Under the pieces are notes generated by a model. The model made no database searches and was not told where the DNA came from. It saw only the letters and a program-made list of their open reading frames with translations. Shown piece by piece: positions 4,930-37,317 of a DNA stretch of 64,000 nt; within the stretch, counting starts at the first letter, position 1, and each line of letters opens with the position of its first letter. The position numbers were made by a program, and so were the translations under genes. Source of the stretch: Peptococcaceae bacterium (GTDB taxonomy: Bacteria; Bacillota; Peptococcia; Peptococcales; BICA1-8); the NCBI GenBank assembly GCA_049366715.1, contig JBMNCQ010000055.1:168542-232541 (forward strand), written 5' to 3'.

Positions 4930-5130
4930 TCTGTTTTAACCAACTCTCGTGATCGTTTTTACTGCTATTATAACAAAGTATAAAAGGCTACAATTGAACA
5001 TTTTAACGATAAAACAAACATTTTTGAAAGTCATTTCCGAAAAGCGGAACACTAAGGAAATCGATCCTTTCCTAATTTATTATAATAAAAGAACACCATG
5101 GGTAATATTATTTCCCATAGTGTCCCTGAA

Positions 5131-9987: not shown

Positions 9988-10015
9988 ACACTATTAACCC
10001 TTTCTTCATACCATA
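9988..10015 (+). promoter_or_regulatory. mother-cell sigma (sigmaK/E-type) promoter candidate for cotS-like gene
   Basis: AC-N17-CATACCATA, 37 nt upstream of ATG at 10052. Confidence 0.45.
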
Positions 10016-14430: not shown

Positions 14431-14603
14431 CTCATAATTATTATATGAACATTTCAGAAATTGGTTTAAATCTTCTTCCTCTCCGGCCCCGCAACTTCTC
14501 CGGATATAGGGCTGTCATAATAGCAGCGGGGCCTTATTGTCAAAACTGCGTTTTTGCAAAGCAGCAAAATTTCATTTTTTTAAGAAAATTTCTTACAGTA
14601 TTC

Positions 14604-21809: not shown

Positions 21810-22526
21810 ATGACTGATAACTTAAGGCAAGAACAGCAGGTTCAACCCGGGCCTTGTCCCCTTGACCCGGAAACCGGTATCCCGGTCTGCCCCCCACCTA
21901 CGGAAATAGACATTATTAAAGTCAATAAAGTTTTTAATGAATGTATGCACACGCAAGTAGTTGAAGGTGTCATTACCGGCTGGACTACTGCCAATACTAC
22001 AGATGCTACTGAAGCGTCCTGTGATTCTGTCTCAGTAAGTAATGTTACCTGTACTGTTTTAAACGGTAACGATATTGTAAGGGTAACCTTTGAGCTTCAG
22101 GTATGTGCAACTGTACCTTTAGACACCGGCGGCGTTCAGAGATTATGTGCAACTGAAACGGTGACCCGGACCTTAGCTATTGAGAGAGCAAGTGAAGAAG
22201 GCTTAAACGTCCAGTGCCATATCTTCCCGGAATGTTTGTTCTGCTATATCTCGGAAAGGGACAGCGCAACCGGCGGGGTAGAAGCCGTAACTTGTTGTGT
22301 AGGTGTGCTGATTTTATTAAAAGTTGATGCTGAAGTACAATTATTAATTCCTACTTATGGGTATCCCGGACCACCGCCCGAATGTGAAGAATTCTTAGGT
22401 GAGTGCCCGACAGACTTTAATCCGGATTGGCCCCCCTATCCCCCTCAGCTGCTGTTTGGTACTTCCGCAGCGAAAAAAGGCAACGGCACATATGTAAGAG
22501 CTCAGAAAAAAGGATGTAAAAAATAA
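21810..22526 (+). CDS. Cys-rich conserved hypothetical protein, paralog of 14685..15380
   Basis: 238 aa; same conserved blocks as the 14685 product; TAAGGAGG RBS. Confidence 0.75.
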   Translation: MTDNLRQEQQVQPGPCPLDPETGIPVCPPPTEIDIIKVNKVFNECMHTQVVEGVITGWTTANTTDATEASCDSVSVSNVTCTVLNGNDIVRVTFELQVCATVPLDTGGVQRLCATETVTRTLAIERASEEGLNVQCHIFPECLFCYISERDSATGGVEAVTCCVGVLILLKVDAEVQLLIPTYGYPGPPPECEEFLGECPTDFNPDWPPYPPQLLFGTSAAKKGNGTYVRAQKKGCKK

Positions 22527-23401: not shown

Positions 23402-24184
23402 CTATTTTGCTGTAAATATTTCCGTTACATACAAGGTTGAACCGTTTTTATAATCGACACCAATTCCTACATAAGTGTACCCTTCATTTAAAATAGCTGC
23501 CCGGTGTACGGAACTATTCATAAACCCTTGATGAGCTTTCGTAACACTTGAAGTTTTACCTAAATTTTCACCTGCATAGCGAAAATCTACTCCACCATTT
23601 TTCAGCATTGTAGATACTTTTCCGTAAGTTGGTGATTCATGAGCAAAATAGTTATTCTCGATCATATCGTTTGTTTTAACATCTGCCCATTCCGCAAGCT
23701 CTGCATCATAAATAAGCGGGTCTAAACCTTGAGCGGCTCTTTCTTGATTAATCAGTTCAAACAATTGCTGCTCTTCTGCCGATGTTGCACCGGAATCCTG
23801 TGAAGGCTCCGTTGGATCAGGTTCAGCAGGTGTAGGGTCCGGCTGAGGTTCCGGAGTAGGTGTAGAATGATTACCGTTATAATACTTATTATAATAGTAA
23901 TAGGGATTGGACCAATAATTCGGAGCTGCTGTTGTTGCCGCAGGTTCCTGGGTCTCGGGCTCCGCAGATTCTGTTTCCTCTTCTGTTGCCGGAGCTTGTG
24001 TATCCGTATCGGTATCGGTTCCTGTTCCATAATATTTTGCATACCATTCAGGACTTAACCACTGGTTGGTTGCAGCTTCCACCGGGCTTGTCCCCAAACC
24101 GATAAAAACAAATGCAGATAAAAATAAAACAACTAAGCCGGTTTTAACTAGGCTTCTCAATAAAATCCCCTCCATTTTGATCAT
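23402..24184 (-). CDS. secreted CAP/SCP-domain protein (YkwD-like) with TD-repeat and Pro/Glu-rich linker
   Basis: 260 aa; signal peptide; GTDTDTDTQ and PEPQPDPTPAEPDPTEP linker; C-terminal ...LINQERAAQGL..L......A......M......F.H.S..G... CAP-like domain. Confidence 0.7.
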   Translation of the reverse strand: MIKMEGILLRSLVKTGLVVLFLSAFVFIGLGTSPVEAATNQWLSPEWYAKYYGTGTDTDTDTQAPATEEETESAEPETQEPAATTAAPNYWSNPYYYYNKYYNGNHSTPTPEPQPDPTPAEPDPTEPSQDSGATSAEEQQLFELINQERAAQGLDPLIYDAELAEWADVKTNDMIENNYFAHESPTYGKVSTMLKNGGVDFRYAGENLGKTSSVTKAHQGFMNSSVHRAAILNEGYTYVGIGVDYKNGSTLYVTEIFTAK

Positions 24185-24396: not shown

Positions 24397-25926
24397 CTAG
24401 ATCCTTCTTCGAAAAGGAAATTGAGGATATGGTTTCCGGCTTTTCATTTCTAATTCTTTAAGGTTTTTCACAAGTGCTTTGTTTTCATCTTCTTTTTCCA
24501 TAAATTTATTTCTCAGCTGATTATTTGTGGCTTTTACTACCTCCAGGCTCTGCCTCAGCTTCAGAACTTCTTCCGTTAAATTTTGCAGTTTCTCAACTTC
24601 CTGTTGCAGCTGTTTTTTTTGGTCCTGCTCCTTTTGCAGAGCCTGCTGCAAATTGTCAATTTCCAGAGCCTGTAAAGCTTCCTTTTCTTGCAGAACATTA
24701 ACCTGGTGCGTTTTTTTACTATTTTCCTCTTCCAGCCTGCTTATTAAGCTATTTAGCCCGGCAATTTTTTCTTCCCGGGACCTGTCATTAACCCTATTCC
24801 TTGCAGAAGATTGCCCGAAATTTTTATAATATTTGATCACTTTCCGCCTTTCCCGGCTTAATGGCGGGTTGACTTCCTCCCCGGACTGCTGACCGGCAGC
24901 ATCCTTCAGCAATAAGAATACCGCCGTACTATCCGGCTCTAGCGCCGCTAAATCAATCCCCGGATATTGATCAATATCCAAAGCTAACCGTTTAGCAAAA
25001 TATTTTACCGGCATGAATTGTGTTGTTAACTGCCGGGCGGCCGCGTACTTGTGGATATACTCATTCTCCTGCCAGAAAATTTCTATTTCCGCACCGTTCA
25101 GATAAATAAGAGGTGATAAAGAGACACCTTCTTTAGATGATATGCACTGTTCTTTGAGCCAGCCGGAATTAAGCCAGACTCCTTTCGTTTTGAACTTCCG
25201 GGTATACATGACTCTGGCATTCATATGCTCCAGCCGCAGCCAGGTGATATGCAGATTACCCTCTTGGTCAAAGAGGGCCGCAGGATTAATATTGATACCT
25301 TGTGAAGATGTTATGACACTTTTTAAGCCCCACTGGCTCTCTTTACCCATCCGGTAAACTAACTGGTACTTTCCTTTCTGATAAATCTGGTAGATGAGAT
25401 AAAGGACATCTCCCTGCGTAACGGCAGCACACCCTCCCGGTCCGTTTCCCCAGCCTTTATCAATAACAAAAGAGTCCTGCCACAGCCCATCTCTTTTAAA
25501 ACAGCACCGGATCTTCCACTCTTTCGTCTGGAAATTTTCCGTAATAATGATTACATACATCTTGTCCCCACTAAAACCTATTTTTTGAAAAGTAATCTTA
25601 TCCCTTTTTTCCAGCCCGATATTAATTATTTCAGGAGAATCTTCGCCCAAAGAATGACATATGATCTGCTCCAGATGATTTTTATAACTAATATAGAAAT
25701 GATTAGCAGGACTTACCCCCATCGTAAATAAACCTGAAAAATCTTTTCTTAGCTCCCGGAAACGGCTTTCTCCAGGATAATAAATATAAAAAGAACCGTC
25801 CTCCACCTTTAGTGTCCATTCTTGCCCGAGTCCTATAATCTCCAGTTGATTAGAGCCAAAAAGACCGTAATTTTCCTCCATTTCAGCACCACCTAAATAA
25901 TTAAACTCCCATTGTATCTTATTCAA
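24397..25926 (-). CDS. hypothetical 509-aa protein: beta-rich N-terminal region plus about 130-aa C-terminal coiled coil
   Basis: C-terminus LQEKEALQALEIDNLQQALQKEQDQKKQLQQEVEKLQNLTEEVLKLRQSLE...; no enzymatic motif. Confidence 0.6.
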   Translation of the reverse strand: MNKIQWEFNYLGGAEMEENYGLFGSNQLEIIGLGQEWTLKVEDGSFYIYYPGESRFRELRKDFSGLFTMGVSPANHFYISYKNHLEQIICHSLGEDSPEIINIGLEKRDKITFQKIGFSGDKMYVIIITENFQTKEWKIRCCFKRDGLWQDSFVIDKGWGNGPGGCAAVTQGDVLYLIYQIYQKGKYQLVYRMGKESQWGLKSVITSSQGININPAALFDQEGNLHITWLRLEHMNARVMYTRKFKTKGVWLNSGWLKEQCISSKEGVSLSPLIYLNGAEIEIFWQENEYIHKYAAARQLTTQFMPVKYFAKRLALDIDQYPGIDLAALEPDSTAVFLLLKDAAGQQSGEEVNPPLSRERRKVIKYYKNFGQSSARNRVNDRSREEKIAGLNSLISRLEEENSKKTHQVNVLQEKEALQALEIDNLQQALQKEQDQKKQLQQEVEKLQNLTEEVLKLRQSLEVVKATNNQLRNKFMEKEDENKALVKNLKELEMKSRKPYPQFPFRRRI

Positions 25927-25976: not shown

Positions 25977-26003
25977 ACAAAAAAAAGCGATTCCCATAAG
26001 ATA
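25977..26003 (+). promoter_or_regulatory. sigmaK/E-type promoter candidate
   Basis: AC-N16-CATAAGATA, 42 nt upstream of ATG at 26045. Confidence 0.45.
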
Positions 26004-26044: not shown

Positions 26045-26194
26045 ATGGCAGAAGCTGTAGGTCAATATGGATATGGATATGGATGTAATGCATTTTGTAA
26101 TGAATTTTTCTTTGAAACATTATTAATGATTATCATTATTATGTGGTTGTTAAAATGGCTCTTTGGATTTGGTTTTGACGGAGCTTACTGTTAG
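26045..26194 (+). CDS. tiny membrane protein, family A (49 aa)
   Basis: MAEAVGQYGYGYGCNAFCNEFFFETLLMIIIIMWLLKWLFGFGFDGAYC; AAAGGAGG RBS; the track ORF 26006..26194 is an N-terminal over-extension. Confidence 0.75.
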   Translation: MAEAVGQYGYGYGCNAFCNEFFFETLLMIIIIMWLLKWLFGFGFDGAYC

Positions 26195-26373
26195 ATTTTA
26201 AAAAATCCCTCTCCTGACCATGGGGACATATCCCAACCTGTAAAATCAGGGATACTCCCTGGCCCGATGTTATCCCTGTAAGAATAGATATTCCCTGTTC
26301 TCTTGAGGAGATATGTCCCTTTTCCATGCTAAGCATTTATGCCAATTTTTTTTCGAAAGGAGGGCCAGTATTT

Positions 26374-26847
26374 ATGCCGCAAGATAGAAATAAAGATCCT
26401 AAAAACATGAGAGGCTTTGACCCCAATACAATTTACTCCCTGTTTGATTCCTTCAACAACTTGAGTAATGCCTTTAAACAACTAAACTTACCCAATATGA
26501 CTAAATTCCTTTATTTTAACCCCCCTAATCCTGCTCATAAGCCTAAAGGAGGTAAAAAATATTTTAAGCCTGCTAAGCCCACTAAACCTGCAAAACCCGG
26601 CAAACCACAAAAACCTCTGAACTTTAACGGTTTTTTGAAAGCCTTTTCCGATGGTTTAAATGCCTTAAATTTTTCGAATCCTTTTAGGCTAAAGAGACAA
26701 CCAGGTTCTTTTCCCCGTTCATCCAGAAGAATCATTGTCAAAAGGACCTTTCTGTCTAATCAATTAATTGTTGTAAAACCGCCGGGGTATACAGAAAAAG
26801 ACACTCCGGAGGAAATCATAACGGAGGAAACCATAACCGAGGAATAA
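26374..26847 (+). CDS. Lys/Pro-rich low-complexity protein (157 aa)
   Basis: Start set at MPQDRNK (AAAGGAGGG 9 nt upstream); HKPKGGKKYFKPAKPTKPAKPGKPQKP tract. Confidence 0.55.
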   Translation: MPQDRNKDPKNMRGFDPNTIYSLFDSFNNLSNAFKQLNLPNMTKFLYFNPPNPAHKPKGGKKYFKPAKPTKPAKPGKPQKPLNFNGFLKAFSDGLNALNFSNPFRLKRQPGSFPRSSRRIIVKRTFLSNQLIVVKPPGYTEKDTPEEIITEETITEE

Positions 26848-26984
26848 ACTCTGTTGAGTGTCTCCTCCAGGCCCTTTATGAACCGAATCTTGCTATTATC
26901 TTCCCTGGTCACTGTACAACACTACCGATCAGGATTAGATCCGTTTCAAAAAATAGAAGAAAGGCACCCAAATGGATGCCTTTT

Positions 26985-27335
26985 TTATTCTTCCTCCACT
27001 TTTGCCATTTCTGCTTCCGCTATTTCTTCAACTACCTCGGCTATCTCTTCTGCTGCCTCATCCATAGGTTCTACCTGTGCTTCCGGCTGATACCCCTTTT
27101 TACTTTTTTCTGCCGGTCTTACCGGTTTTCTAGGTGCAAAAATACCTGCTATTTTACTGCTTCCTTTGGCGACTATTTCTATCTGAGGTGCGAAATTTTC
27201 TATAGAGCTTAAAAGTTGATCAAAGTTATCAGCGAACATCCTTAAATTATTTGTTACTCCCTTTAGATTAGAGACAGTCCTAAGCAAGGGCTTTGTTCTA
27301 CTGAGATTTTCATAACCTTTGCCATACTGTGACAT
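26985..27335 (-). CDS. hypothetical protein with FAD-x2-D-x-LL-x-S-x-E motif and acidic tail (116 aa)
   Basis: AAAGGAGG RBS; motif region SNLKGVTNNLRMFADNFDQLLSSIENFAPQIEIV aligns with the 28125 product; 28 nt downstream of 27364..27777. Confidence 0.6.
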   Translation of the reverse strand: MSQYGKGYENLSRTKPLLRTVSNLKGVTNNLRMFADNFDQLLSSIENFAPQIEIVAKGSSKIAGIFAPRKPVRPAEKSKKGYQPEAQVEPMDEAAEEIAEVVEEIAEAEMAKVEEE

Positions 27336-27363
27336 CTTCTTCCTCCTTTCAATTCAGCAAACA

Positions 27364-27777
27364 TCAATCATAACTGAATAACCATTTTAAAAGCCAAAAA
27401 ATAATAATTTGCATGAAAAGCGCTTCAAAAAAGCAATTATTGTTACATACCCTTTCCGGAAATGCTTCATAACCTACAGCTTCATCTTCTTCCTCCAGGG
27501 TTACCGGATGATTAACTTCAACATTTTCAGCCGGTGGTAAATGAGCTCCTAAACCATAGGCTTTCACCGGTTTTTGAGGCGGAAATACATTTTTCAGAAT
27601 TCCCTTTGTTACTCCTGTAAGAAGACTTTGCCCGGACCTGGGAGTTTTGGGGAATTCTTTGCTGCTATTAACAGGATTCTTCTGCATTTCTTGCTTTGCT
27701 ATGTTTATTTTTTCCCGGGGCTTTTTATCTTGTAAACTGTTGTGCTTTTGATTCCCATAAGTATCTAACTCAGCCAT
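27364..27777 (-). CDS. 137-aa protein whose C-terminus is a family-A tiny-TM module (fusion form)
   Basis: C-terminal CNNNCFFEALFMQIIIFWLLKWLFSYD* matches stand-alone family A peptides; TAGGAGGGG RBS. Confidence 0.7.
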   Translation of the reverse strand: MAELDTYGNQKHNSLQDKKPREKINIAKQEMQKNPVNSSKEFPKTPRSGQSLLTGVTKGILKNVFPPQKPVKAYGLGAHLPPAENVEVNHPVTLEEEDEAVGYEAFPERVCNNNCFFEALFMQIIIFWLLKWLFSYD

Positions 27778-27813
27778 CCTCTGCTACCCCTCCTAAAAAA
27801 ACATTTACACTAA

Positions 27814-27841
27814 TATAATATGTAGAACATTAAGTACTTGT
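27814..27841 (-). promoter_or_regulatory. sigmaK/E-type promoter candidate
   Basis: Minus strand AC-N17-CATATTATA, 37 nt upstream of ATG at 27777. Confidence 0.45.
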
Positions 27842-28066
27842 TTGCAGAATATAGCAATTAACTCAGGGCCACTTACTTTTTTCCCGGTACTTATGAATGA
27901 TAAAAAATCTGAATTGTTACTATTTTTTTACCACTGCATGAGAAAGTAATTTTTTTAACCGGCATCTGTCTCACTTAAATATTGAGAAAACAGTACTGAT
28001 CTAAAATTTGCACTTCTTTAAAATTGCTTCCAATAAAAAATCCACTTTTATATTTTTATATTTGTC

Positions 28067-28094
28067 ACATTTTATGAATTAATTCCATAAAATA
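28067..28094 (+). promoter_or_regulatory. sigmaK/E-type promoter candidate
   Basis: AC-N17-CATAAAATA, 31 nt upstream of ATG at 28125. Confidence 0.45.
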
Positions 28095-28124
28095 AGGTAA
28101 ATCTTAAGCGAAGGAGTGTGACAG

Positions 28125-28712
28125 ATGCCCCGCTACAGAAAAATAACACCTGTAAATATTAATGAGCAAGAACGAATTCTAAGTGAAAAGTTCAATCAGA
28201 ATAGACCTAAGTACAAAAAAACAGTAAGGAGAACCCAGAGACCTAATGAAAATCCTTTATTACCTTTATACCAATTAAAAACCAAACTACAACGTTCTTT
28301 TGAAAATAGAAGCACCCAGGAAGTCGTCTTTGATACTTGTAAAAGTTTAAGAGGGATCTGCGGTCAAGTCCGGTCTTTTGCCGATGAAGTTGATAACCTC
28401 CTAGGTTCGGTAGAATCCATTGTTCCGGTTATGGAAACAGTAGTATCCAGCTATGCCCGTTCTTTAAAAAATAAAGAGCAGCCCATTTTAGAGAAAGATA
28501 AAATCCCTGCGGAGGAAACAAACAAGGCCAAAGAAGACCAAAGTACTGATAACGAAAATCCAATCCGGGAAAATACAGCTGATAAAACTTCCAAAATGCC
28601 TGCCAAAATGCCGTCGGAAATGGAAATCAAAGAGTTCCTGAACAATCCCCTGGTGGCAAGTTTACTACAAAATTTAACGCAAAAGATGATGACAAATAAA
28701 CAGCAGCAGTGA
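28125..28712 (+). CDS. hypothetical 195-aa protein sharing the FAD-x2-D-x-LL-x-S-x-E motif
   Basis: KSLRGICGQVRSFADEVDNLLGSVESIVPVMETV (14/34 identical to the 26985 product by eye); GAAGGAG RBS. Confidence 0.6.
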   Translation: MPRYRKITPVNINEQERILSEKFNQNRPKYKKTVRRTQRPNENPLLPLYQLKTKLQRSFENRSTQEVVFDTCKSLRGICGQVRSFADEVDNLLGSVESIVPVMETVVSSYARSLKNKEQPILEKDKIPAEETNKAKEDQSTDNENPIRENTADKTSKMPAKMPSEMEIKEFLNNPLVASLLQNLTQKMMTNKQQQ

Positions 28713-28833
28713 ACCGGTTCCGTCCGGTTAATCGTCTATAGCTAAGAGCAGGTAGCTCATACAACAGTCAGCCGGTGACACCAGATATTCCTTCACTGAG
28801 CGGCTGTTTTTTTTACCCTTTTTATTTTTCCAC

Positions 28834-28864
28834 AAAAAATACCCCTCGGTAAGGGGTATTTTTA
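28834..28864. terminator. bidirectional terminator
   Basis: AAAAAATACCCCT-CGGT-AAGGGGTATTTTT between convergent genes. Confidence 0.75.
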
Positions 28865-28866
28865 AG

Positions 28867-29067
28867 TTAAAAGGGTAATCCTAATTTGCTTATTAATTTT
28901 TGTGTTAATTCTTCCATTTGCTCCTTGCTTTTTATTCCACCGGCAGCTTCGATTTCTGCGATCACCTCATTTATCACCTTTCTTTTGTCTTCAGGTAAAA
29001 ACATTTCGAATTGAGCAACAATTGCTTTTAACTCCTCAATGCTTTGCGGCATTTGAAATTGATTCAT
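28867..29067 (-). CDS. hypothetical helical small protein (66 aa)
   Basis: ORF 16 nt downstream of 29084..29503; GGGAGG RBS. Confidence 0.5.
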   Translation of the reverse strand: MNQFQMPQSIEELKAIVAQFEMFLPEDKRKVINEVIAEIEAAGGIKSKEQMEELTQKLISKLGLPF

Positions 29068-29083
29068 AATTAACCTCCCGCTT

Positions 29084-29503
29084 TTATTTTATTGTCCTGC
29101 TGTATATAGGAGTATAGGTCTTTTCCTCCCGTAAAGAATTATCTACTCTTCTGGAATACAATACCGTATGCTTTGTTTCAGGTTGAGGGGCTTTTGCCTT
29201 TTTGGTTCTTTTCGGTTCCATAACCCGGGAATATAATACACTATGATTCTCTTTAGGGTCTTCGGCAATTGCTTCAATAACTTTCCTTTCCGGCAGATCT
29301 TCTTCCTTCCCAATCGTTCTGTTAAATAATACTTTTATTTCGTCAGATGTGATCGTATCTTTAACCTCTTCCTCCTCTTTGGATCTTACCGTTCCCCACG
29401 GCCTTAAAAATCCGCTGCCCTGGCTAAAGAATGCCAAAAATACAACAGCTATTAACAGAAAAATACTAAAAGATTTGTTTTCATTATCATAAAGACCAAA
29501 CAT
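29084..29503 (-). CDS. N-terminally anchored protein with three (V/I)(L/P)YSR repeats (139 aa)
   Basis: TM helix FSIFLLIAVVFLAFF; HSVLYSRVMEP..., HTVLYSRRVDN..., YTPIYSRTIK*; AAAGGAGGGAG RBS. Confidence 0.55.
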   Translation of the reverse strand: MFGLYDNENKSFSIFLLIAVVFLAFFSQGSGFLRPWGTVRSKEEEEVKDTITSDEIKVLFNRTIGKEEDLPERKVIEAIAEDPKENHSVLYSRVMEPKRTKKAKAPQPETKHTVLYSRRVDNSLREEKTYTPIYSRTIK

Positions 29504-29564
29504 TTTACTACTCCCTCCTTTTGTCCCAAAGTTTAAAAATTAATGAAAAGCTTTAATTCTGATT

Positions 29565-29591
29565 CATTTTATGCGCAAAAAAATTAAGTGT
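29565..29591 (-). promoter_or_regulatory. sigmaK/E-type promoter candidate
   Basis: Minus strand AC-N16-CATAAAATG, 62 nt upstream of ATG at 29503. Confidence 0.35.
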
Positions 29592-29706
29592 TCCTAGATC
29601 ACATGATTTTTGAATTCCAATTAATTACAATTTGCCCCTTCCTGCTTAGCACGGGAAAATAAAGTTTTACTATATTTTTTAATGCTGAGCGGTAAATTTA
29701 TTTATC

Positions 29707-29734
29707 ACCTTTATGATTTGCCCCTCATAAAATA
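29707..29734 (+). promoter_or_regulatory. sigmaK/E-type promoter candidate
   Basis: AC-N17-CATAAAATA, 32 nt upstream of ATG at 29766. Confidence 0.45.
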
Positions 29735-29765
29735 TAAGCAACGAACAGGCAAGGAGGTCTGGGAA

Positions 29766-29876
29766 ATGAATACCAACTGGCATAATCTCAACATGTATTT
29801 TTTTGAAACGATCCTGATGGTCATAATTATCTTTTGGCTTTTACGCTGGTTATTCAGCAGCAATTACACAGCCTGA
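29766..29876 (+). CDS. tiny membrane protein, family A (36 aa)
   Basis: MNTNWHNLNMYFFETILMVIIIFWLLRWLFSSNYTA; CAAGGAGG RBS; the track ORF 29682..29876 is over-extended. Confidence 0.7.
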   Translation: MNTNWHNLNMYFFETILMVIIIFWLLRWLFSSNYTA

Positions 29877-29889
29877 TCCATTCCAGTGC

Positions 29890-29919
29890 AGAGTAAGTTT
29901 TTAACTTACTCTTTTTTTT
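29890..29919 (+). terminator. rho-independent terminator
   Basis: AGAGTAAGTT-TTT-AACTTACTCT-TTTTTTT. Confidence 0.85.
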
Positions 29920-30009
29920 GGTCAATCCACCGCCAGACATTGATTCTCTTAAAGTATTATATGTATTCGGCTGTAAAAAGTTTATGACTTTTCTTGTAAA
30001 CTTAAATGC

Positions 30010-30036
30010 ACAGTTTAGAGAGTACTTCATAAGATA
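30010..30036 (+). promoter_or_regulatory. sigmaK/E-type promoter candidate
   Basis: AC-N16-CATAAGATA, 47 nt upstream of ATG at 30083. Confidence 0.45.
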
Positions 30037-30082
30037 TTACTGTAAACGATAACTATTACGCTCATGAAAGGAGGATTTTTAC

Positions 30083-30229
30083 ATGGCTGATAAAACTGCT
30101 AGCCAATTTGGTTTCTTTGGTGGGGAGTGTTTCTTTAACGAATGCTTCTTCGAAACTCTTTTAATGATAATCATAATTTACTGGCTTTTAAGGTGGTTAT
30201 TTGGTTTTAACTACTATGGTGCTGTTTAA
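30083..30229 (+). CDS. tiny membrane protein, family A (48 aa); not in ORF track
   Basis: MADKTASQFGFFGGECFFNECFFETLLMIIIIYWLLRWLFGFNYYGAV; AAAGGAGG RBS. Confidence 0.8.
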   Translation: MADKTASQFGFFGGECFFNECFFETLLMIIIIYWLLRWLFGFNYYGAV

Positions 30230-30286
30230 AAATTAAGCCGAGCACAAATGTCCCGGGAAAATATGTTCTTGAAAGGGGGCCTTTAC

Positions 30287-30406
30287 ATGGCAGACGGGTA
30301 CGGAAGTTGCTTTTTTAACGAATGTTTCTTTGAAACATTATTAATGATTATTATTATCTACTGGCTCTTAAGGTGGTTATTCGGCTTTAACGGCTTTGGT
30401 GTTTAA
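30287..30406 (+). CDS. tiny membrane protein, family A (39 aa); not in ORF track
   Basis: MADGYGSCFFNECFFETLLMIIIIYWLLRWLFGFNGFGV; AAAGGGGG RBS. Over the 26 shared codons it differs from the 30083 copy at 11 codons, all synonymous. Confidence 0.8.
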   Translation: MADGYGSCFFNECFFETLLMIIIIYWLLRWLFGFNGFGV

Positions 30407-30419
30407 GGCTTCTCAGATA

Positions 30420-30455
30420 AAGGGTAAAGATGGATTCCACCTTTACCCTTTTATT
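30420..30455 (+). terminator. rho-independent terminator
   Basis: AAGGGTAAAG-ATGGATTCCAC-CTTTACCCTT-TTATT. Confidence 0.7.
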
Positions 30456-30516: not shown

Positions 30517-30645
30517 ATGACTGAAGAAAGCAGACAATACGGATATGGCGGCTTTCCTTTCGGGGGCTACTGGTGGATTTGGATAATAATAGGTGTATTA
30601 TTTTTCTTATTCTTCTTTGGCGGATGCGGCTTTGGTCCCTGCTAA
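30517..30645 (+). CDS. tiny membrane protein, family B-like / YjcZ-like (42 aa); not in ORF track
   Basis: MTEESRQYGYGGFPFGGYWWIWIIIGVLFFLFFFGGCGFGPC; AGAGGGGG RBS. Confidence 0.65.
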   Translation: MTEESRQYGYGGFPFGGYWWIWIIIGVLFFLFFFGGCGFGPC

Positions 30646-30685: not shown

Positions 30686-30802
30686 ATGGCTGATAATGTT
30701 GCCGGTCAATTTGGTTTTGGCTACGGTTACCAATGGCTGGTTTGGGTGGCTATAATCGCCTTGGTCATTTACTTATTCGCATTTCCTTGCTGTGGAATAT
30801 AA
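30686..30802 (+). CDS. tiny membrane protein, family B / YjcZ-like (38 aa)
   Basis: MADNVAGQFGFGYGYQWLVWVAIIALVIYLFAFPCCGI; GAGAGGAG RBS; the track ORF 30593..30802 is over-extended. Confidence 0.75.
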   Translation: MADNVAGQFGFGYGYQWLVWVAIIALVIYLFAFPCCGI

Positions 30803-30912: not shown

Positions 30913-31035
30913 ATGGCTGATAATGTTGCCGGTCAATTCGGTTACGGTTTTGGCAACCAATGGCTGGTTTGGGTAGCTTTAATCGCTTTGATCATCTATG
31001 TGATCTGCTTCCCATACGGCGGGGGATACTGTTAG
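30913..31035 (+). CDS. tiny membrane protein, family B / YjcZ-like (40 aa); not in ORF track
   Basis: MADNVAGQFGYGFGNQWLVWVALIALIIYVICFPYGGGYC; GAGAGGGGG RBS. Confidence 0.8.
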   Translation: MADNVAGQFGYGFGNQWLVWVALIALIIYVICFPYGGGYC

Positions 31036-31121: not shown

Positions 31122-31250
31122 ATGGCTGATAATGTTGCCGGTCAATTCGGTTACGGTTACGATTACGGTTCCCAATGGCTGGTCTGGGTAGCTTTAATCG
31201 CTTTGATCATCTATATTTTCTGCACCCCATACGGGGGCGGCTGGTGTTAA
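31122..31250 (+). CDS. tiny membrane protein, family B / YjcZ-like (42 aa)
   Basis: MADNVAGQFGYGYDYGSQWLVWVALIALIIYIFCTPYGGGWC; AAAGGAGG RBS; the track ORF 30960..31250 is over-extended. Confidence 0.8.
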   Translation: MADNVAGQFGYGYDYGSQWLVWVALIALIIYIFCTPYGGGWC

Positions 31251-31354: not shown

Positions 31355-31477
31355 ATGACGGATAATGTTGCCGGTCAATTCGGTTTTGGTTATGGCAGTC
31401 AGTGGCTGATCTGGGTAGCTTTAATCGCTTTGATCATCTATATTTTCTGCACCCCATACGGCGGAGGATGCTGCTAA
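31355..31477 (+). CDS. tiny membrane protein, family B / YjcZ-like (40 aa); not in ORF track
   Basis: MTDNVAGQFGFGYGSQWLIWVALIALIIYIFCTPYGGGCC; AAAGGAGG RBS; shares a 52-nt identical run with the 31122 copy. Confidence 0.8.
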   Translation: MTDNVAGQFGFGYGSQWLIWVALIALIIYIFCTPYGGGCC

Positions 31478-31579: not shown

Positions 31580-31921
31580 TCAGACAATCTGAACCAGTGC
31601 TTTATCCACATCATCGGCAATCGTAAAAATTTTATCAAGTTTTGCAAATCCGATTATCTTTTTCACATACTCCGTCATACCTGCATACACAATTTGGCCC
31701 TGCCCCTGATTCATATATTTAAATAAAGAAATGAGCATTCCCAACCCCGAAGAATCAAGCATAGGCACCTGAGACAAATCCAATACCAACTTATTAGCCT
31801 GAGAATTCTTTAATTCCTCTTTAATCTTCTCCTTTAAATCATTTGAGTACAATAAGGTTACTTCACCTTTAATGCTGGCCACTAAAATATCTTTCTCCTG
31901 GTTTAATACTAATTCAGCCAT
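31580..31921 (-). CDS. STAS-domain anti-sigma-factor antagonist (SpoIIAA/RsbV-like), orphan
   Basis: 113 aa; ...LVLDLSQVPMLDSSGLGMLISLFK... (conserved phosphorylatable Ser context DSSGLG). Confidence 0.8.
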   Translation of the reverse strand: MAELVLNQEKDILVASIKGEVTLLYSNDLKEKIKEELKNSQANKLVLDLSQVPMLDSSGLGMLISLFKYMNQGQGQIVYAGMTEYVKKIIGFAKLDKIFTIADDVDKALVQIV

Positions 31922-32125: not shown

Positions 32126-33751
32126 ATGAAGATAAAAAAGTTAAAGTTTTTGCAGTTTTTAATCAGTCAAAAACCCCTTAAACCCTTCTGGGACAATGAA
32201 AACACCAGAAGCCGCAGCAACGGAGATCAGAATAATGAGAAACTGACCGCCAGCTTGGAAAAAAATATAAAAATGCTGAAAAGTACCTTGGGAGAAAGCA
32301 GCGATATCGTATATCACAGATTTACCATGGGTACGGAAGGAAGACCGGAAGCTGTCCTGATTATGGTTGACGGTATAGTAGATAAAAATACGGTTAATAA
32401 TTTTGTGATCAAAACACTGATGATTGATAGTCAAGTTACGAACAATAAAAGCGGGCTCTACCCCAACTATACCATCGACACGATTAAAAATACCCTGGTG
32501 TCCGTCGGAGGCATACAAGAGGCTGTCTTCCTCAGGGATATTATAGACAATATTCTGGCCGGGGATACTGTCTTAGTAATAAACGGTTTTAATATCGGAC
32601 TCATCATCAGTACCAGGGGCTGGAAAAGCCGGGGCATTGAGCAGCCTGAAACAGAGTCAGGGGTTCGCGGCCCTCATGACGGCTTCACCGAAACACTGCG
32701 CATAAATACGGCCTTAATCCGCCGCCGGATCAGAAATCCCGCTCTTACTTTTGAATCTTTTATCATTGGGAAACGGACCAAAACCGATATCGCTGTCGTT
32801 TACTTAAAAGGCATCGTTAAGCCCGGCTTAGTGGAAGAAATAAAAAAGCGCTTACAAAGGATAGATAATGATGCCATCCTGGAATCTGGATATATCGAAC
32901 AGTTCATTGAGGATGCTCCCCTTTCTCCTTTCAGTACCATAGGTAATACCGAAAGGCCGGACATCGTAGCAGCAAAACTTTTGGAAGGACGGGCAGCAAT
33001 TATCACCGATGGAACACCGGTAATTCTTACCATGCCGATGATTTTTTTGGAAAGCTTTCAAGCCGCGGAAGACTATTACTCCCGCCCCTATTATGTAAGT
33101 ATCGTAAGAGCCCTGAGGTTCCTTTCTTTTTTTATAAGTGTCTTTGGCCCGGCTTCTTTTGTAGCCTTAACAAGCTTTCACCAGGAATTGATACCCACAC
33201 CGTTATTGCTAACCATGGCTGCGGCCCGGGAAGGTACTCCTTTCCCCTCCGTCATTGAAGCAACTCTCATGGGGATAGCTTTTGAAATCCTGAGGGAAGC
33301 CGGTATCCGCCTGCCCCGGCCTGTTGGTACGGCCATCAGCATCGTAGGGGCATTGGTAATTGGGGATGCGGTAGTATCGGCAGGATTAATCGGCGCTCCC
33401 ATGGTTATTGTCGTAGCCATCACAGCCATTGCTTCCTTCGTCGTCCCCCCTCAGGCCGACGTCGGGGGAATAGCCAGAATCATCCTGGTGTTTATGGCCG
33501 GTTTTTTAGGGGCCTTCGGTATCATGATCGGCCTTTTAGGAGGACTGATCCATATTTGTGCCTTAAGATCTTTTGGTACACCTTACTTTTCTCCTTTTGC
33601 CCCGCTTAAAATTTCCGATCTCAAAGATACTATTGTCCGGTTTCCTTTGTGGGCCATGCTCACCAGACCTTCCAGCATGGGCTGGAATAACCCTGTTAGA
33701 GAAGACTTGGGGAATATGCCGGCCCCACCCCAGAAAAAGAAACAGCCTTAG
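32126..33751 (+). CDS. spore germination protein, GerA-family A subunit
   Basis: 541 aa; soluble N-terminal domain plus C-terminal TM bundle; typical blocks RRRIRNP, ESGYIEQFIED, FPSVIEA. Confidence 0.85.
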   Translation: MKIKKLKFLQFLISQKPLKPFWDNENTRSRSNGDQNNEKLTASLEKNIKMLKSTLGESSDIVYHRFTMGTEGRPEAVLIMVDGIVDKNTVNNFVIKTLMIDSQVTNNKSGLYPNYTIDTIKNTLVSVGGIQEAVFLRDIIDNILAGDTVLVINGFNIGLIISTRGWKSRGIEQPETESGVRGPHDGFTETLRINTALIRRRIRNPALTFESFIIGKRTKTDIAVVYLKGIVKPGLVEEIKKRLQRIDNDAILESGYIEQFIEDAPLSPFSTIGNTERPDIVAAKLLEGRAAIITDGTPVILTMPMIFLESFQAAEDYYSRPYYVSIVRALRFLSFFISVFGPASFVALTSFHQELIPTPLLLTMAAAREGTPFPSVIEATLMGIAFEILREAGIRLPRPVGTAISIVGALVIGDAVVSAGLIGAPMVIVVAITAIASFVVPPQADVGGIARIILVFMAGFLGAFGIMIGLLGGLIHICALRSFGTPYFSPFAPLKISDLKDTIVRFPLWAMLTRPSSMGWNNPVREDLGNMPAPPQKKKQP

Positions 33752-33777
33752 AACAGGAGAAAGGTAAGGTATGCAGT

Positions 33778-34947
33778 ATGAACAGCCTGATCAAAATATT
33801 ATCCGTCCTGATGCTCTCCCTTGCCCTGCCTGTTTCAGGCTGCTGGGACCGTAAAGAACTGGACCAACTGGCTATCGTATCCAGTATAGCCTACGATACC
33901 GCTGCGGAACCCGAAGGGATTACCGTAACTGCCCAATTAATCCTTTCCGGCAAAGTTTCTGCCCCGGGAACGGGCGGCGGCGGCGGGGAAAAAACTCCGG
34001 TCCGGGTAATCCAAGCCACAGCGACAACACCCTTTGCCGCTGTCAGAAACATGTCTTTACAGTCTGAAGAAAAACCCTATTTTTCCCATAATCCCATCCT
34101 CGTCATGGGCCGGGGAATTGCTGAAAAAGGGGTTTCACCAATATTGGATTTCCACTTCCGGGATCCCGAACATAGAAGAACCGGCTATTTCCTGGTAGCA
34201 GAAGGAAAAGGACAGGATATTATTGCCATTGGAACTGAGCAAGAGGAGATTCCGGGAATGTTCATCAAAAACATGCTGGAAACGGCTAATTTCAATACTT
34301 CAAAGATAGCACTGATCACCGAACAAGAATTTATGGAAAGACTGATGAGTAAAACCACCTCGCCCTATGCCACTTTGATTAAAACTTCCGAAGATGGGAA
34401 AGAAAAGACTTTGCGTCTGACAGGTACGGCGGTCTTTAAAAGGGATAAGCTGGCAGGTAAATTCGATTACCGGGAAAGCCGCGGTCTTTTATGGATATTG
34501 GGAAAAGTCAAAAGCGGTATTATCGTAGTCCCCTGCTCAGAACACAACGGTGAAATCGGCCTGGAGATCATCCGCGCCAAAAGCAAAATTATTCCGGAAA
34601 TTACGGAAAACTCCATCAAGATAACCATCAAGGTCAGTGAAGAAGGAAATCTGGGAGATCAAAGCTGTTCGGAGGATTTAACAACACCTGCCGCCTGGCA
34701 GGAATTAGAAAAAAAACAGGCTGCGGCTATTAAGGAAGAAATGATGGCCGCCGTTGCCAAGTCCCGGGAACTTAACAGCGATGTATTTGGCTTTGGGGAT
34801 GCCGTTCACCGCAAATATCCCCAGCTGTGGCGCGATGAACTGGAAGAAAACTGGGACGATTATTATCCTGAACTGGAAATTGAAATCATAGTGGAGGCCA
34901 GGCTGCGCCGGCCCGGGATGATTACCAAGCCCGCCGTACCGCAGTAA
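33778..34947 (+). CDS. Ger(x)C-family germination lipoprotein
   Basis: 389 aa; signal peptide with lipobox VSGCWDRKELD, the hallmark start of GerAC-type proteins. Confidence 0.85.
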   Translation: MNSLIKILSVLMLSLALPVSGCWDRKELDQLAIVSSIAYDTAAEPEGITVTAQLILSGKVSAPGTGGGGGEKTPVRVIQATATTPFAAVRNMSLQSEEKPYFSHNPILVMGRGIAEKGVSPILDFHFRDPEHRRTGYFLVAEGKGQDIIAIGTEQEEIPGMFIKNMLETANFNTSKIALITEQEFMERLMSKTTSPYATLIKTSEDGKEKTLRLTGTAVFKRDKLAGKFDYRESRGLLWILGKVKSGIIVVPCSEHNGEIGLEIIRAKSKIIPEITENSIKITIKVSEEGNLGDQSCSEDLTTPAAWQELEKKQAAAIKEEMMAAVAKSRELNSDVFGFGDAVHRKYPQLWRDELEENWDDYYPELEIEIIVEARLRRPGMITKPAVPQ

Positions 34948-35110
34948 ATGACTTGGCAGCCATGGAGAATAGAGAGTTGAGATCGGAGTATTACAGCCAA
35001 GCAGCGGCACCGCACCAGGAGCCGCTAAGAGAAAACTATGGAAACAACAATAAGCCGGAAATTTTTTAACTGGTTTCTGTAACTAGTCACGGACCGGGGG
35101 GGATAAGTCT

Positions 35111-36214
35111 ATGCAGTTGGAAGGAGGTAAAATTGATAATTTCAGCTTATTTTTCCTCATCATCGGCTTTACTATTGGTTCTACGACCATAATCAGTCCT
35201 ACACCCGGAGCAGGACATGACTCATGGCTGGCGGTACTGGCCGGGATGCTGGAAGGAGTTTGCTATGCCGCGGTTTTTTTATCTTTAGCCCGGAAATTCC
35301 CCGGTAAGAATCTCATTGAGATCATTAACCTGGTTTTCGGCAGATTTTGGGGCAAAATTATTTCCCTCGGCTACTTATGGTATTTTCTCCACCTGGGTTC
35401 TTTGGTCTTAAGAAACTTTGGGGACTTTTTTAATTTGATGGTCTTTCCCAAAACCCCTATGGTGATTATCATCGGTCTGACGATACTGGTTACTGCCTCT
35501 GCGGTCAGGAACGGTGTCGAAGTTATCACAAGATGCAGTGTGGTTTTAGTTCCCTTGATCTTAGCGGCTTATATTTTTGATACACTGTTTATTATTCCTA
35601 AAATGGACCTGAGCAAGCTTTTACCAGTCTTCGACCTGCCTGTAAAAGACTTTATCAAGGCCAGCCATGCTGCAGCCACTTTCCCTTTTGGCGAAACGAT
35701 ACTCCTCTTAATGACGACGGCCTATGTTACCGATTACAAAAAAACCAGAAGTTATTTTATCAGCGCCCTGATTTTCATCAGCTGCTTTTTTTCTCTGGCA
35801 GCCGCCCGAAACACTGCAGTGCTCGGCACGTCGGCAGACATTCACCTCTATCCTTCTTATGAAGCAATACGTCTCATAGAAGTAGGCAGTATTTTAACCC
35901 GGTTGGAAGTGATTATAGACTTTACTATTTTTTTTATGGGCTTTGTTAAAATAGCCGTATGCTATTACGGAACGGCACTAGGTACTGCTCAGCTCTTAAA
36001 TTTACGTTCTTACCTGCCCCTTGTTATACCAATCGGCATAATTATGACTATTTTAAGCCTTACGCAATTTGAATCAGCCAGCGCAAATATTGAATGGGCA
36101 GCCAATTTTTATCCCTACTACAGCCTGCCCTTTCAAATCGGCCTTCCTCTCCTGGCCCTGATTATCACCTTTTTTAACAAAAAAACCCCTCAGAAGGCAG
36201 GTGAAAGCAGATGA
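35111..36214 (+). CDS. GerA-family B subunit (APC-type spore germination permease), copy 1
   Basis: 367 aa, 10 TM; N-terminal ...ISPTPGAGHDSWLAVL... Confidence 0.8.
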   Translation: MQLEGGKIDNFSLFFLIIGFTIGSTTIISPTPGAGHDSWLAVLAGMLEGVCYAAVFLSLARKFPGKNLIEIINLVFGRFWGKIISLGYLWYFLHLGSLVLRNFGDFFNLMVFPKTPMVIIIGLTILVTASAVRNGVEVITRCSVVLVPLILAAYIFDTLFIIPKMDLSKLLPVFDLPVKDFIKASHAAATFPFGETILLLMTTAYVTDYKKTRSYFISALIFISCFFSLAAARNTAVLGTSADIHLYPSYEAIRLIEVGSILTRLEVIIDFTIFFMGFVKIAVCYYGTALGTAQLLNLRSYLPLVIPIGIIMTILSLTQFESASANIEWAANFYPYYSLPFQIGLPLLALIITFFNKKTPQKAGESR

Positions 36215-37317
36215 AGCTGGAAGGAGGCAGAATATCATCCGGTCAGCTGGTTTTCCTCGTCATTTCTTTTAATCTTGGTACGGCCTTGTTAGCCAGTCCT
36301 TCCTCCCAGGCAGGGCACGATGCCTGGTTAACAATACTTGGCGGAATGGCGGAGGGAATTTTCTGCGCCTATGTTTTCACCAGCCTGGCTAGAAAATTTC
36401 CCGGGAAGACCTTAGTCCGGTACAATGATTTAATTTTCGGCCCTGTGATCGGTAAACTGATTTCCCTGGCTTATCTCAGCTACTTTTTTATCATAGCAAC
36501 ATTAACTTTGCGATTATTCGGTGATTTTTTCAGCGGACTGATTTTTCCCCAAACACCGATTATTGTGACAATCGGCCTCCTTGTCTTGATCTGCGCCTCG
36601 GGAGTACGAAACGGCATCGAGGTCCTGGCCCGCTGCAGCCAGGTTTTACTGCCCTTCGTCTTTCTAAATATCTTTATCACTACAATAGCAAGCATTAAAG
36701 ACATCGATATAAACAATTTCCTACCCCTTATGGATATACCTTTAAGGGATTTCCTCAGCGTCTGCTGTTTCTCCAGAGCTTTACCCTTTGGAGCAACCGC
36801 TACTTTTCTAATGATATTCGCTGCTGTAAATAATCAAAAAAAAATGCCGCCTTTTTTTCTCCTGGGCCTATTTATTTCCGGGCTGATATTAATTATCACA
36901 GCCATACGGAATACCGGCTTATTAGGCCCGACCACTACAATATCTACCTACTCTTCTTACCAGGCTACCCGGTTAGTCACTATCGGTGAGGTATTCACCC
37001 GGCTGGAAATATTAGTGGCCATAAATTTTTTAGCTATGGGATTTATTGCAATTTCTTTAGGCTATTATGCAGTTACCCTCGGCGTGGCCCAAATATTCGG
37101 GCTGAAAACTTATCTGCCCTTAGTGATCCCCCTGGGAGTTCTCCTGGTGGTGTTCAGTATTACCCAGTTTGCCAACTATTTTGAATACTTCCGCTTCAGC
37201 AGCAGAATATTACCTTATGCAGGCCTGCCTTTGGAATTAGGCATACCTTTACTTTCTTTACTTATTGTTAAACTTAGAAATATTGCCCCGCAAGAAACTA
37301 AGAAAAAAAAGGAATAA
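36211..37317 (+). CDS. GerA-family B subunit, copy 2 (tandem paralog)
   Basis: 368 aa; ATGA start/stop overlap with copy 1; roughly 45% identical by eye (SLARKFPGK, FGDFF, ASGVRNGIEV). Confidence 0.8.
   Translation: MKLEGGRISSGQLVFLVISFNLGTALLASPSSQAGHDAWLTILGGMAEGIFCAYVFTSLARKFPGKTLVRYNDLIFGPVIGKLISLAYLSYFFIIATLTLRLFGDFFSGLIFPQTPIIVTIGLLVLICASGVRNGIEVLARCSQVLLPFVFLNIFITTIASIKDIDINNFLPLMDIPLRDFLSVCCFSRALPFGATATFLMIFAAVNNQKKMPPFFLLGLFISGLILIITAIRNTGLLGPTTTISTYSSYQATRLVTIGEVFTRLEILVAINFLAMGFIAISLGYYAVTLGVAQIFGLKTYLPLVIPLGVLLVVFSITQFANYFEYFRFSSRILPYAGLPLELGIPLLSLLIVKLRNIAPQETKKKKE

Follow-up and report, generated by a model that had tools for sequence, protein, structure and literature searches.

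A rare, unannotated family of predicted single-helix membrane micro-proteins in uncultivated Peptococcaceae-like spore formers

Five family-A genes and their coding status

The stretch of DNA considered here, 64 kb from the genome of a Peptococcaceae bacterium (contig JBMNCQ010000055.1; hereafter the window), encodes five copies of a short hydrophobic sequence, which we refer to as family A. We regard it as firmly supported that the family is real, that it is rare and without annotation, and that it consists of predicted single-helix membrane micro-proteins of spore formers, encoded within a conserved gene module. Four of the copies are stand-alone tiny open reading frames (ORFs) of 36-49 amino acids (aa), and one is the C-terminus of a 137-aa protein, as follows.

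A1, 26045..26194, plus strand: stand-alone, 49 aa, subtype A-i, with a Gly/Tyr-rich N-tail, the core motif and an AGGAGG ribosome-binding site (RBS); sequence MAEAVGQYGYGYGCNAFCNEFFFETLLMIIIIMWLLKWLFGFGFDGAYC
A2, 29766..29876, plus strand: stand-alone, 36 aa, subtype A-ii, N-terminus H-x-LN-x-YFFE, no Cys; sequence MNTNWHNLNMYFFETILMVIIIFWLLRWLFSSNYTA
A3, 30083..30229, plus strand: stand-alone, 48 aa, subtype A-i, with a helix predicted by AlphaFold2 (AF2) at residues 20-45; sequence MADKTASQFGFFGGECFFNECFFETLLMIIIIYWLLRWLFGFNYYGAV
A4, 30287..30406, plus strand: stand-alone, 39 aa, subtype A-i, starting 57 nucleotides (nt) past A3; sequence MADGYGSCFFNECFFETLLMIIIIYWLLRWLFGFNGFGV
A5, 27364..27777, minus strand: 137 aa, subtype A-iii, the tail-anchored form, with the motif at the extreme C-terminus, ending in ...ERVCNNNCFFEALFMQIIIFWLLKWLFSYD

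The N-domain of A5 is disordered and charged and bears a YGLGAxxPP motif, and in the annotation of the source metagenome-assembled genome (MAG) the protein is listed as hypothetical (MFZ7103667.1, locus tags ACOWWO_135xx). The coordinates of all five copies had been proposed in an earlier reading of the DNA letters without database searches (the sequence-only reading), and all are confirmed, a six-frame motif scan of the window recovering exactly these five and none besides. The same reading had remarked that two of the tiny genes were absent from the ORF track and two were hidden in it, which matches the mechanical ORF list: A1 and A2 are buried in over-extended ORFs of 62 and 64 aa, and A3 (48 aa) and A4 (inside a 52-aa ORF) lie below the 60-aa cut-off. 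Likewise, the strong RBS that it had seen at each copy is found in every case, AGGAGG, GGAGG or AAGGGGG being located 6-10 nt 5' of each start codon from A1 to A5.

A collection of 15 billion proteins lacks the exact peptides of A1, A2 and A4, though it includes neighbouring genes of the same MAG, and no gene is recorded for the A3 product in the assemblies index. By the numbering of accessions in the deposited annotation (MFZ7103669, the s66 protein, to MFZ7103677, GerA), there are three genes between tm139 and two annotated family-B copies, all of these being neighbours described below. Six tiny ORFs are evident between tm139 and those family-B copies and three are annotated, and therefore at least three are unannotated.

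The family-A genes are real and are under strong purifying selection. One comparison is that of A3 with A4, over the 26 codons FNECFFETLLMIIIIYWLLRWLFGFN (30134..30211 versus 30314..30391), where 11 codons and 12 nt differ and all of the changes are synonymous, exactly as the sequence-only reading had counted; when 12 substitutions are placed at random, 0 of 200,000 trials are all-synonymous. A broader comparison is that of the 24-codon core in 45 distinct family-A genes from the window and from 22 related loci (990 pairs, uncorrected), in which the proportion of nonsynonymous differences (pN) is 0.19 and that of synonymous differences (pS) is 0.86, which is saturated, for a pN/pS of 0.23. The all-synonymous changes between A3 and A4 and the low pN/pS thus argue that the genes are translated and strongly constrained, and the copies appear to be old paralogues rather than recent duplicates. 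Selection on the peptide had been proposed from the A3/A4 pair, with a relaxed ratio of nonsynonymous to synonymous substitution (dN/dS) upon addition of homologues named beforehand as grounds for giving up the claim; the selection proves strong, and no relaxation is seen among the 990 pairs.

Distribution, conserved core and predicted helix

With a profile of the five copies, 16 clusters are found among 5.8 billion proteins, none of them with a Pfam domain, and an exhaustive HMMER search of 1.84 billion representatives finds 36 proteins at E<=1e-3; this is the iterative search that the sequence-only reading had proposed, and it leads to no characterised family. The small-ORF-aware search proposed along with it was made as a scan of unannotated DNA in 185,579 species genomes, independent of small-ORF annotation, and reveals 15 loci in about nine species, all of them MAGs, labelled as Peptococcaceae, Peptococcales, Clostridia, Clostridiaceae or Bacillota. 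Among 241 million metagenome records 12 family-A loci are present, and among viral contigs none. Paralogues are numerous, with at least seven each in BRH_c20a and Betzabe_MAG005.

As to known families, profile hidden Markov models (HMMs) of Pfam-A, NCBIfam, PHROGs and PADLOC give no significant match to family A, the best being DUF997 at E = 0.011 (16 bits versus a cut-off of 26) and phrog_15069 at E = 9e-4. When A1-A5 are scanned against these libraries along with eight neighbours, only CAP, STAS and sub-threshold compositional matches are returned. The contention that the family is undescribed holds up in this respect and in two others: every homologue that bears a source name is 'hypothetical', and a literature search for the motif strings found no paper with the family-A motif.

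The alignment of 21 sequences defines an invariant core, N-x2-FFE(T/A)(L/I)(L/F)M-x-III-x-WLL(R/K)WLF, followed by a C-tail of 2-24 residues (median 7) that is rich in Gly, aromatic residues and Cys. Three subtypes can be told apart by what precedes the core.

Subtype A-i: N-tail M(A/T)DNVAGQYGGGG...; A1, A3 and A4 in the window; versions from gut MAGs are longer and Cys/Gly/Asn-rich
Subtype A-ii: short N-terminus H-x-LN-x-YYFE; A2 in the window and relatives P0027-P0047
Subtype A-iii: tail-anchored, about 110-190 aa, with an NP(L/I)xxLxKxLKGI segment and a (T/S)YGLGAxxPP motif, the family-A helix coming last, at the extreme C-terminus; A5 in the window, related loci L004, L011 and L012, and proteins P0019-P0034

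Orthologues of the A-iii fusion are present in at least four MAGs, and the YGLGAxxPP motif is common to them. The shared motif as originally proposed stands in part: the core FFE...WLL(K/R)WLF is invariant, but the C-x3-C that was to precede it is not. A1 has C-x3-C three residues before FFE, A3 and A4 have C-x4-C directly before FFE, A5 has C-x3-C directly before FFE, and A2 has no Cys; in the 12 residues preceding the core, 40 of 73 members have no Cys and 17 have two or more. The Cys pair would seem to be a lineage-specific feature of some members and no family hallmark. A metal- or redox-active CxxxC site that defines the family was considered and is rejected, given these 40 members without Cys. 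Divergent family-A genes are encoded in a MAG from an anaerobic digester (L023, 4250..4387 and 5001..5126), in which Arg is replaced by Cys and Met by Gln, and in one of the two copies Glu is replaced by Val (WFVTLLQVIIILFLLCWLF).

In the AF2 model of A3, built with the family alignment, a disordered N-tail precedes one helix at residues 20-45, the core of which has a predicted local confidence (pLDDT) of about 85. The best 19-residue windows of the family have a mean Kyte-Doolittle hydropathy of 1.8-2.25 and a hydrophobic moment of 0.01-0.10, and the same calculation for SpoVM, a small peptide of Bacillus subtilis that binds the forespore surface, gives 0.9 and 0.30. The family-A helix, being hydrophobic and non-amphipathic, is therefore predicted to span the membrane rather than to lie on its surface, in agreement with the tiny single-helix membrane proteins of the sequence-only reading. 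A SpoVM-like amphipathic surface peptide was considered as a candidate and is rejected on the hydrophobic moment (0.01-0.10 versus 0.30).

Twelve apolar residues separate the Glu of the core from its Arg/Lys. The acidic residue is found near one predicted membrane edge and the basic residue, flanked by two Trp, near the other, with aromatic belts (F22/F23 and W34/W38) at the two predicted interfaces. When entropy is calculated per position for 53 distinct cores, the positions that vary (22, 25, 26, 29, 33 and 36) cluster on one helical face (permutation p = 0.005), and F23, E24, L27, I30, W34, L35, W38 and L39 are invariant or nearly so, I31 being mostly Ile. This looks like the pattern expected of a helix that exposes a narrow stripe to lipid and uses a large surface for specific packing. 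The flank charges are about -1.2 on the N side and +0.8 on the C side, which weakly favours an N-out/C-in topology for the short forms. In A5 the core ends three residues before the stop codon, after 110 charged, low-complexity N-terminal residues, and this layout is repeated in eight orthologues, in which the sole hydrophobic segment ends 3-10 residues from the C-terminus and there is no N-terminal signal sequence. With its single C-terminal hydrophobic segment and no signal peptide, A5 has the features of a tail-anchored protein, and its membrane insertion is predicted on these grounds.

Gene modules and promoter motifs

The family-A genes of the window are interspersed with the following genes.

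CAP-domain gene, 23402..24184: CAP match in the HMM scan
p509, 24397..25926, minus strand: 509 aa, an N-terminal domain of no recognised kind, a coiled coil at the C-terminus, nothing above threshold in Pfam
X, 26985..27335, minus strand: 116 aa, a long-helix protein directly downstream of A5; rare, all relatives hypothetical
X2, 28125..28712, plus strand: 195 aa, a paralogue of X with the common core L(K/R)G...R-FAD...LL-S-E...P
s66, 28867..29067, minus strand: 66 aa, FEMFLPEDKR motif; divergent from the family-A genes in all lineages, including the minimal module of gut MAGs
tm139, 29084..29503, minus strand: 139 aa, one N-terminal hydrophobic segment, a conserved module partner
Family C gene, 30517..30645, plus strand: 42 aa, a tiny membrane protein with a YWWIWIII core that co-occurs with family A in every lineage
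Family B genes, 30686..30802, 30913..31035, 31122..31250 and 31355..31477, plus strand: four tiny membrane protein genes, N-terminus MADNVAGQ(F/Y)G, core WLVWVALIALII
STAS-domain gene, 31580..31921, minus strand: neighbour of the tiny-gene cluster
gerA-type germinant-receptor operon (gerA, gerC, gerB), 32126..37317, plus strand: neighbour of the tiny-gene cluster

The only matches to known families among these neighbours are the CAP domain, the STAS domain and gerA/gerC/gerB. Synteny, as followed by tblastn of the window proteins against all fetched loci, resolves into two modules and a minimal set. Module 1 reads X2; s66 and tm139 (opposite strand); A copies, one C and B copies; STAS on the opposite strand; and gerA-gerC-gerB-gerB. 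This module is represented in six species (the window, BRH_c20a, Clostridia AS01, Betzabe_MAG005, the Peptococcales MAG L010 and the anaerobic-digester MAG), with the exceptions that the L010 contig ends at STAS and that the digester MAG has no STAS gene. In module 2, represented in four species, a family-A gene, either fusion or stand-alone, is followed by X, p509 and the CAP-domain gene. The minimal set is that of the gut Peptococcaceae MAGs (L013-L022), which have a divergent s66 and then A-i, X, A-ii and C, adjoining spoIIM. As A, X, s66 and C are present in the modules and in the minimal set alike, they are co-inherited throughout the family's range.

In every case the gene for X comes immediately after a family-A gene, a pair that is kept across species, and AF2 models the protein as a single long helix that covers residues 11-66, the pLDDT reaching as high as 92 in the conserved core. 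One protein of the digester MAG contains a tandem duplication of the X domain (L023, 4484..4918). Homology between X and the N-domain of the A5-type fusions was considered and is rejected (hhalign probability 0.1%), and a search of the PDB with the X profile returned designed coiled coils only, which are compositional matches. Like family A, X, family B and family C are rare, to the same degree, and all 'hypothetical'. By profile comparison with hhalign, A and B align with a probability of 95.8% (E = 7e-9), B and C with 92%, and A and C with 5%. The N-tails of A-i and C shift in composition in parallel between lineages: those of the gut MAGs (L013-L022) have 13-19% Cys, are Asn/Gly-rich and Tyr-poor and measure 32-53 aa, and those of environmental members (window, L002, L005, L010) have 0-4% Cys, are Gly/Tyr/Phe-rich and measure about 18-20 aa. 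Such a parallel shift suggests that the tails of A-i and C share an environment and may have a matrix-like or cross-linking role.

Promoter-like motifs offer another kind of evidence. CATAAGATA and CATAAAATA, present 5' of window genes, we take to be a mother-cell -10 element, and the motif AC-N16-17-CATANNNTA occurs 18 times in the window versus 3.8 expected, mostly 5' of genes in this island. The occurrences upstream of the genes in question and the terminator-like hairpins are as follows.

25977..26003, plus strand: sigma-K-type motif AC-N16-CATAAGATA, upstream of A1
27814..27841, minus strand: sigma-K-type motif upstream of the A5-X operon
29707..29734, plus strand: sigma-K-type motif upstream of A2
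30010..30036, plus strand: sigma-K-type motif upstream of the A3-A4 pair
28067..28094, plus strand: sigma-K-type motif upstream of X2
30842, plus strand: sigma-K-type motif upstream of a family-B copy
21724, plus strand: sigma-K-type motif upstream of the Cys-rich 21810 gene
26960..26983, minus strand: terminator-like hairpin at the end of the A5-X unit
29890..29912, plus strand: terminator-like hairpin and T-run after A2
30419..30451, plus strand: strong hairpin (-20 kcal/mol, z = -3.7) and then a U-rich run, serving as terminator for the A3-A4 unit

Four apparent transcription units emerge, namely A1 alone, A5-X, A2 alone and A3-A4. In A3-A4 the two genes are probably co-transcribed, because no promoter or terminator motif is found in the 57-nt gap between them. 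A generic scan for terminators shows no enrichment, though those after A2, X and A4 are individually convincing, and a generic scan for sigma-70-like promoters shows none either (23 versus 17 expected).

Considering all loci, the motif precedes 24 of the 45 distinct family-A genes, its first base being 56-98 nt upstream of the start codon, and the genes without it are mostly internal operon members. Among 27 non-redundant -10 sites, the -35 position reads AC in 22 and the sigma-E-type AT in none, and the conserved stretch extends to CATAnGATATTAnTGTG. In B. subtilis, promoters of sigma-E and sigma-K have a common -10 element and differ at one position of the -35, T versus C (Eichenberger et al., PMC517825). 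With AC and never AT at -35, the motif therefore points to sigma-K, and late mother-cell expression of family A appears well supported but indirect. The window as a whole looks like a late-sporulation gene island, and the connection to sporulation made by the sequence-only reading is strengthened by the sigma-K-type motifs and by the synteny with gerA, spoIIM and coat-like genes.

Some further features of the window may be recorded here. Additional sigma-K-type motifs are located at 9988 and 15581 (plus strand) and at 14465 and 17829 (minus strand), and several such motifs precede other unannotated or coat-like genes, one example being 21810..22526, which encodes a Cys-rich 238-aa protein with two homologues in the related locus L001. 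A minus-strand motif at 29955..29981 would read antisense through A2 toward tm139 (29503..29084); it could be the promoter of tm139-s66, with A2 inserted in its leader, or it could be due to chance. Between A1 and the gene at 26362 lies a structured region of 144 nt (26192..26335, plus strand; minimum free energy -36.8 kcal/mol, z = -2.5), in which a long-range inverted repeat (GGGGACATATCC / GGAGATATGTCCC) surrounds two inner hairpins and for which there is no Rfam match. An Rfam scan of the 21-33 kb region at E<=1 gives nothing near any gathering score.

Possible roles and relation to known families

The explanation that we favour, and that we consider probable though well short of certain, is that family A comprises lineage-restricted single-pass membrane micro-proteins made late in the mother cell, whose helix serves interaction and anchoring in the spore envelope. 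Sigma-K-type promoters would drive production of the peptides in the mother cell late in sporulation, and each peptide would be composed of a disordered low-complexity N-tail, one near-invariant transmembrane helix (FFETLLM-x-III-x-WLL(R/K)WLF) and a short C-tail. The helix would be a module for specific helix-helix interaction and for anchoring, beyond a generic hydrophobic span, and it would be used in two ways, alone in the form of paralogues and, in proteins of about 110-190 aa such as A5, as a tail anchor at the C-terminus. Family A would then work in the spore envelope along with B, C, X, X2 and s66, the peptides residing in the outer membrane of the forespore or at its interface with the coat, where their sticky tails may tether or organise material. 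The sigma-K transcription, the location and topology in the membrane, the partners and the envelope role are what we infer from the helix, the promoter motifs and the synteny.

A number of observations weigh against this explanation. All of the carriers are uncultivated MAGs, and the assignment of the promoters is a consensus match transferred from B. subtilis. The link between A and X is one of adjacency alone, as there is no detectable homology between X and the fusion N-domain. The topology is ambiguous, since a charged fusion N-domain of about 100 aa is easier to reconcile with N-in tail anchoring. The Glu and the Arg are not strictly needed, as the copies of the digester-MAG lineage (FVTLLQ...LLCWLF and FETLLQ...LLCWLF) replace the Arg with Cys and, in one of them, the Glu with Val. 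Finally, the recurrent gerA neighbourhood could point to a role in germination.

In such a role A, B and C would be accessories that modulate the adjacent GerA-type receptor or the access of germinants to it, in the manner of small receptor-associated subunits or of the sigma-K-dependent GerP coat proteins that control germinant permeability. The tiny-gene cluster is indeed directly upstream of gerA-gerC-gerB in five species (the window, BRH_c20a, Clostridia AS01, Betzabe_MAG005 and the digester MAG), and in the last of these the tiny genes and gerA share one orientation, with no intervening gene. However, the promoter motif is of the mother-cell (sigma-K) type, while GerA receptors belong to the inner membrane and are made in the forespore (sigma-G); between the tiny cluster and gerA lies a divergent STAS gene in five species; and the loci L001, L004 and L006, which belong to the same genomes, as well as the minimal module of the gut MAGs, are located away from gerA, so that we judge a germination role unlikely. 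Still less probable, in our estimate, are membrane-damaging peptides akin to type I toxins or holins, serving for example the programmed lysis of the mother cell that ends sporulation. Small, single-helix, multi-copy proteins with an apparently late mother-cell type of promoter would suit such a function, and the minus-strand sigma-K-like motif at 29981..29955, antisense to A2, recalls it as well, but the Shine-Dalgarno sites are strong and unoccluded, no conserved antisense RNA and no Rfam match are found, and sigma-70-like promoters are unenriched. The genes are arrayed in tandem on one strand, inside a conserved module that looks structural, a larger protein is tail-anchored by this same helix, and the extensive invariant packing face is atypical of toxins, the sequences of which drift.

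Tandem small ORFs in multiple copies, with Gly- or Cys-rich segments and a common N-terminus, MADNVAGQ(F/Y)G, also bring to mind the precursors of bacteriocins or of ribosomally synthesised and post-translationally modified peptides, the conserved region being the leader or the core peptide. This we hold to be very improbable: there is no gene for a maturase, a radical-SAM enzyme, a lanthipeptide synthetase, a peptidase-C39 or an ABC exporter in the window or at the inspected loci, the most conserved part is a 19-residue hydrophobic helix with no leader or cleavage motif, and tail-anchored fusions exist. A different proposition is that A, B and C belong to the YjcZ family but have diverged beyond the reach of its HMM. 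This resemblance had been drawn from the G/Y/F-rich N-termini in the sequence-only reading, and it is borne out in architecture, both families consisting of proteins of fewer than 50 aa in which a Gly/Tyr-rich N-tail is followed by a single transmembrane helix and then by a short C-tail, and it may extend to regulation, B. subtilis yjcZ being assigned to the sigma-K regulon (PMC517825) and family A having sigma-K-type motifs by consensus match. Both are, in addition, represented by several paralogues per genome in endospore formers, and A, B and C are interlinked by profile comparison. Membership is not borne out: the search with the YjcZ model that had been suggested was made, and TIGR01732 (cut-off 21.35 bits) gives no match to A1-A5, B or C even at E<=10, versus 53.2 and 47.3 bits for two self-composed YjcZ-like control sequences; nor is there a match in Pfam, and the invariant FFET...WLLRWLF core has no counterpart in the controls. 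We therefore see divergent membership as a doubtful option, one that would moreover explain little, as we know of no mechanism or function for YjcZ, even in Bacillus.

Returning to the spore-envelope explanation, one may go further and imagine the helix as a portable assembly tag, by means of which the free peptides A, B and C would assemble into a hetero-oligomeric lattice within the outer membrane of the forespore, and A5 and, either by way of A5 or directly, X and X2 would be plugged into it. We consider this extended form rather unlikely as well. If true, it would amount to a new, SpoVM-independent coupling of the formation of the spore's coat or outer layer to the membrane in Peptococcaceae-like bacteria, in which cross-linkable Tyr-rich or Cys-rich tails form the first layer of the matrix.

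Overall, micro-proteins of fewer than 50 aa are systematically missed by annotation, and family A presents a clean example that is validated by selection. Along with B, C, X, X2, s66 and tm139 it defines a conserved and wholly uncharacterised module, apparently specific to late sporulation. The spore formers that carry it make up a little-studied branch and come from the deep subsurface, anaerobic digesters and the gut. Family A widens the YjcZ-type class, and its near-invariant helix and its tail-anchored fusions provide concrete handles on peptide function, namely the Glu and Arg, the two Trp and the conserved face. A practical limit is that no cultivated carrier is known.

As to the relation with known systems, we read family A as YjcZ-like in architecture and yet as no YjcZ member, from which it would be set apart by the TIGR01732 HMM. 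Its helix is distinct and nearly invariant, with a Glu, an Arg/Lys and two Trp, it is also used as a tail anchor on a larger protein, and it is found only in Peptococcaceae-like MAGs, in a module (X, X2, s66, tm139, B, C) that, to our knowledge, is not known from Bacillus. Families B and C are co-located, co-oriented and co-inherited with A, and B has the same N-terminus, MADNVAGQ(F/Y)G, but their transmembrane cores (WLVWVALIALII in B, WWIWIII in C) are different, and they lack the Glu, the Arg and the tail-anchored fusion form. Compared to ordinary tail-anchored proteins, A5 and its orthologues likewise have no N-terminal signal and a C-terminal segment as their sole hydrophobic one, but the family-A anchor is a sequence-invariant module that is also present in the form of free-standing genes. 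The closest functional analogy to the proposed role of family A may be SpoVM, the 26-aa, sigma-E-dependent peptide of B. subtilis that is made in the mother cell and tethers coat material at the outer membrane of the forespore. The two have no sequence similarity, and the helix of SpoVM is amphipathic and lies in the plane of the membrane (moment 0.30, Kyte-Doolittle 0.9), while that of family A is fully hydrophobic (moment <=0.1, Kyte-Doolittle about 2) and would cross it.

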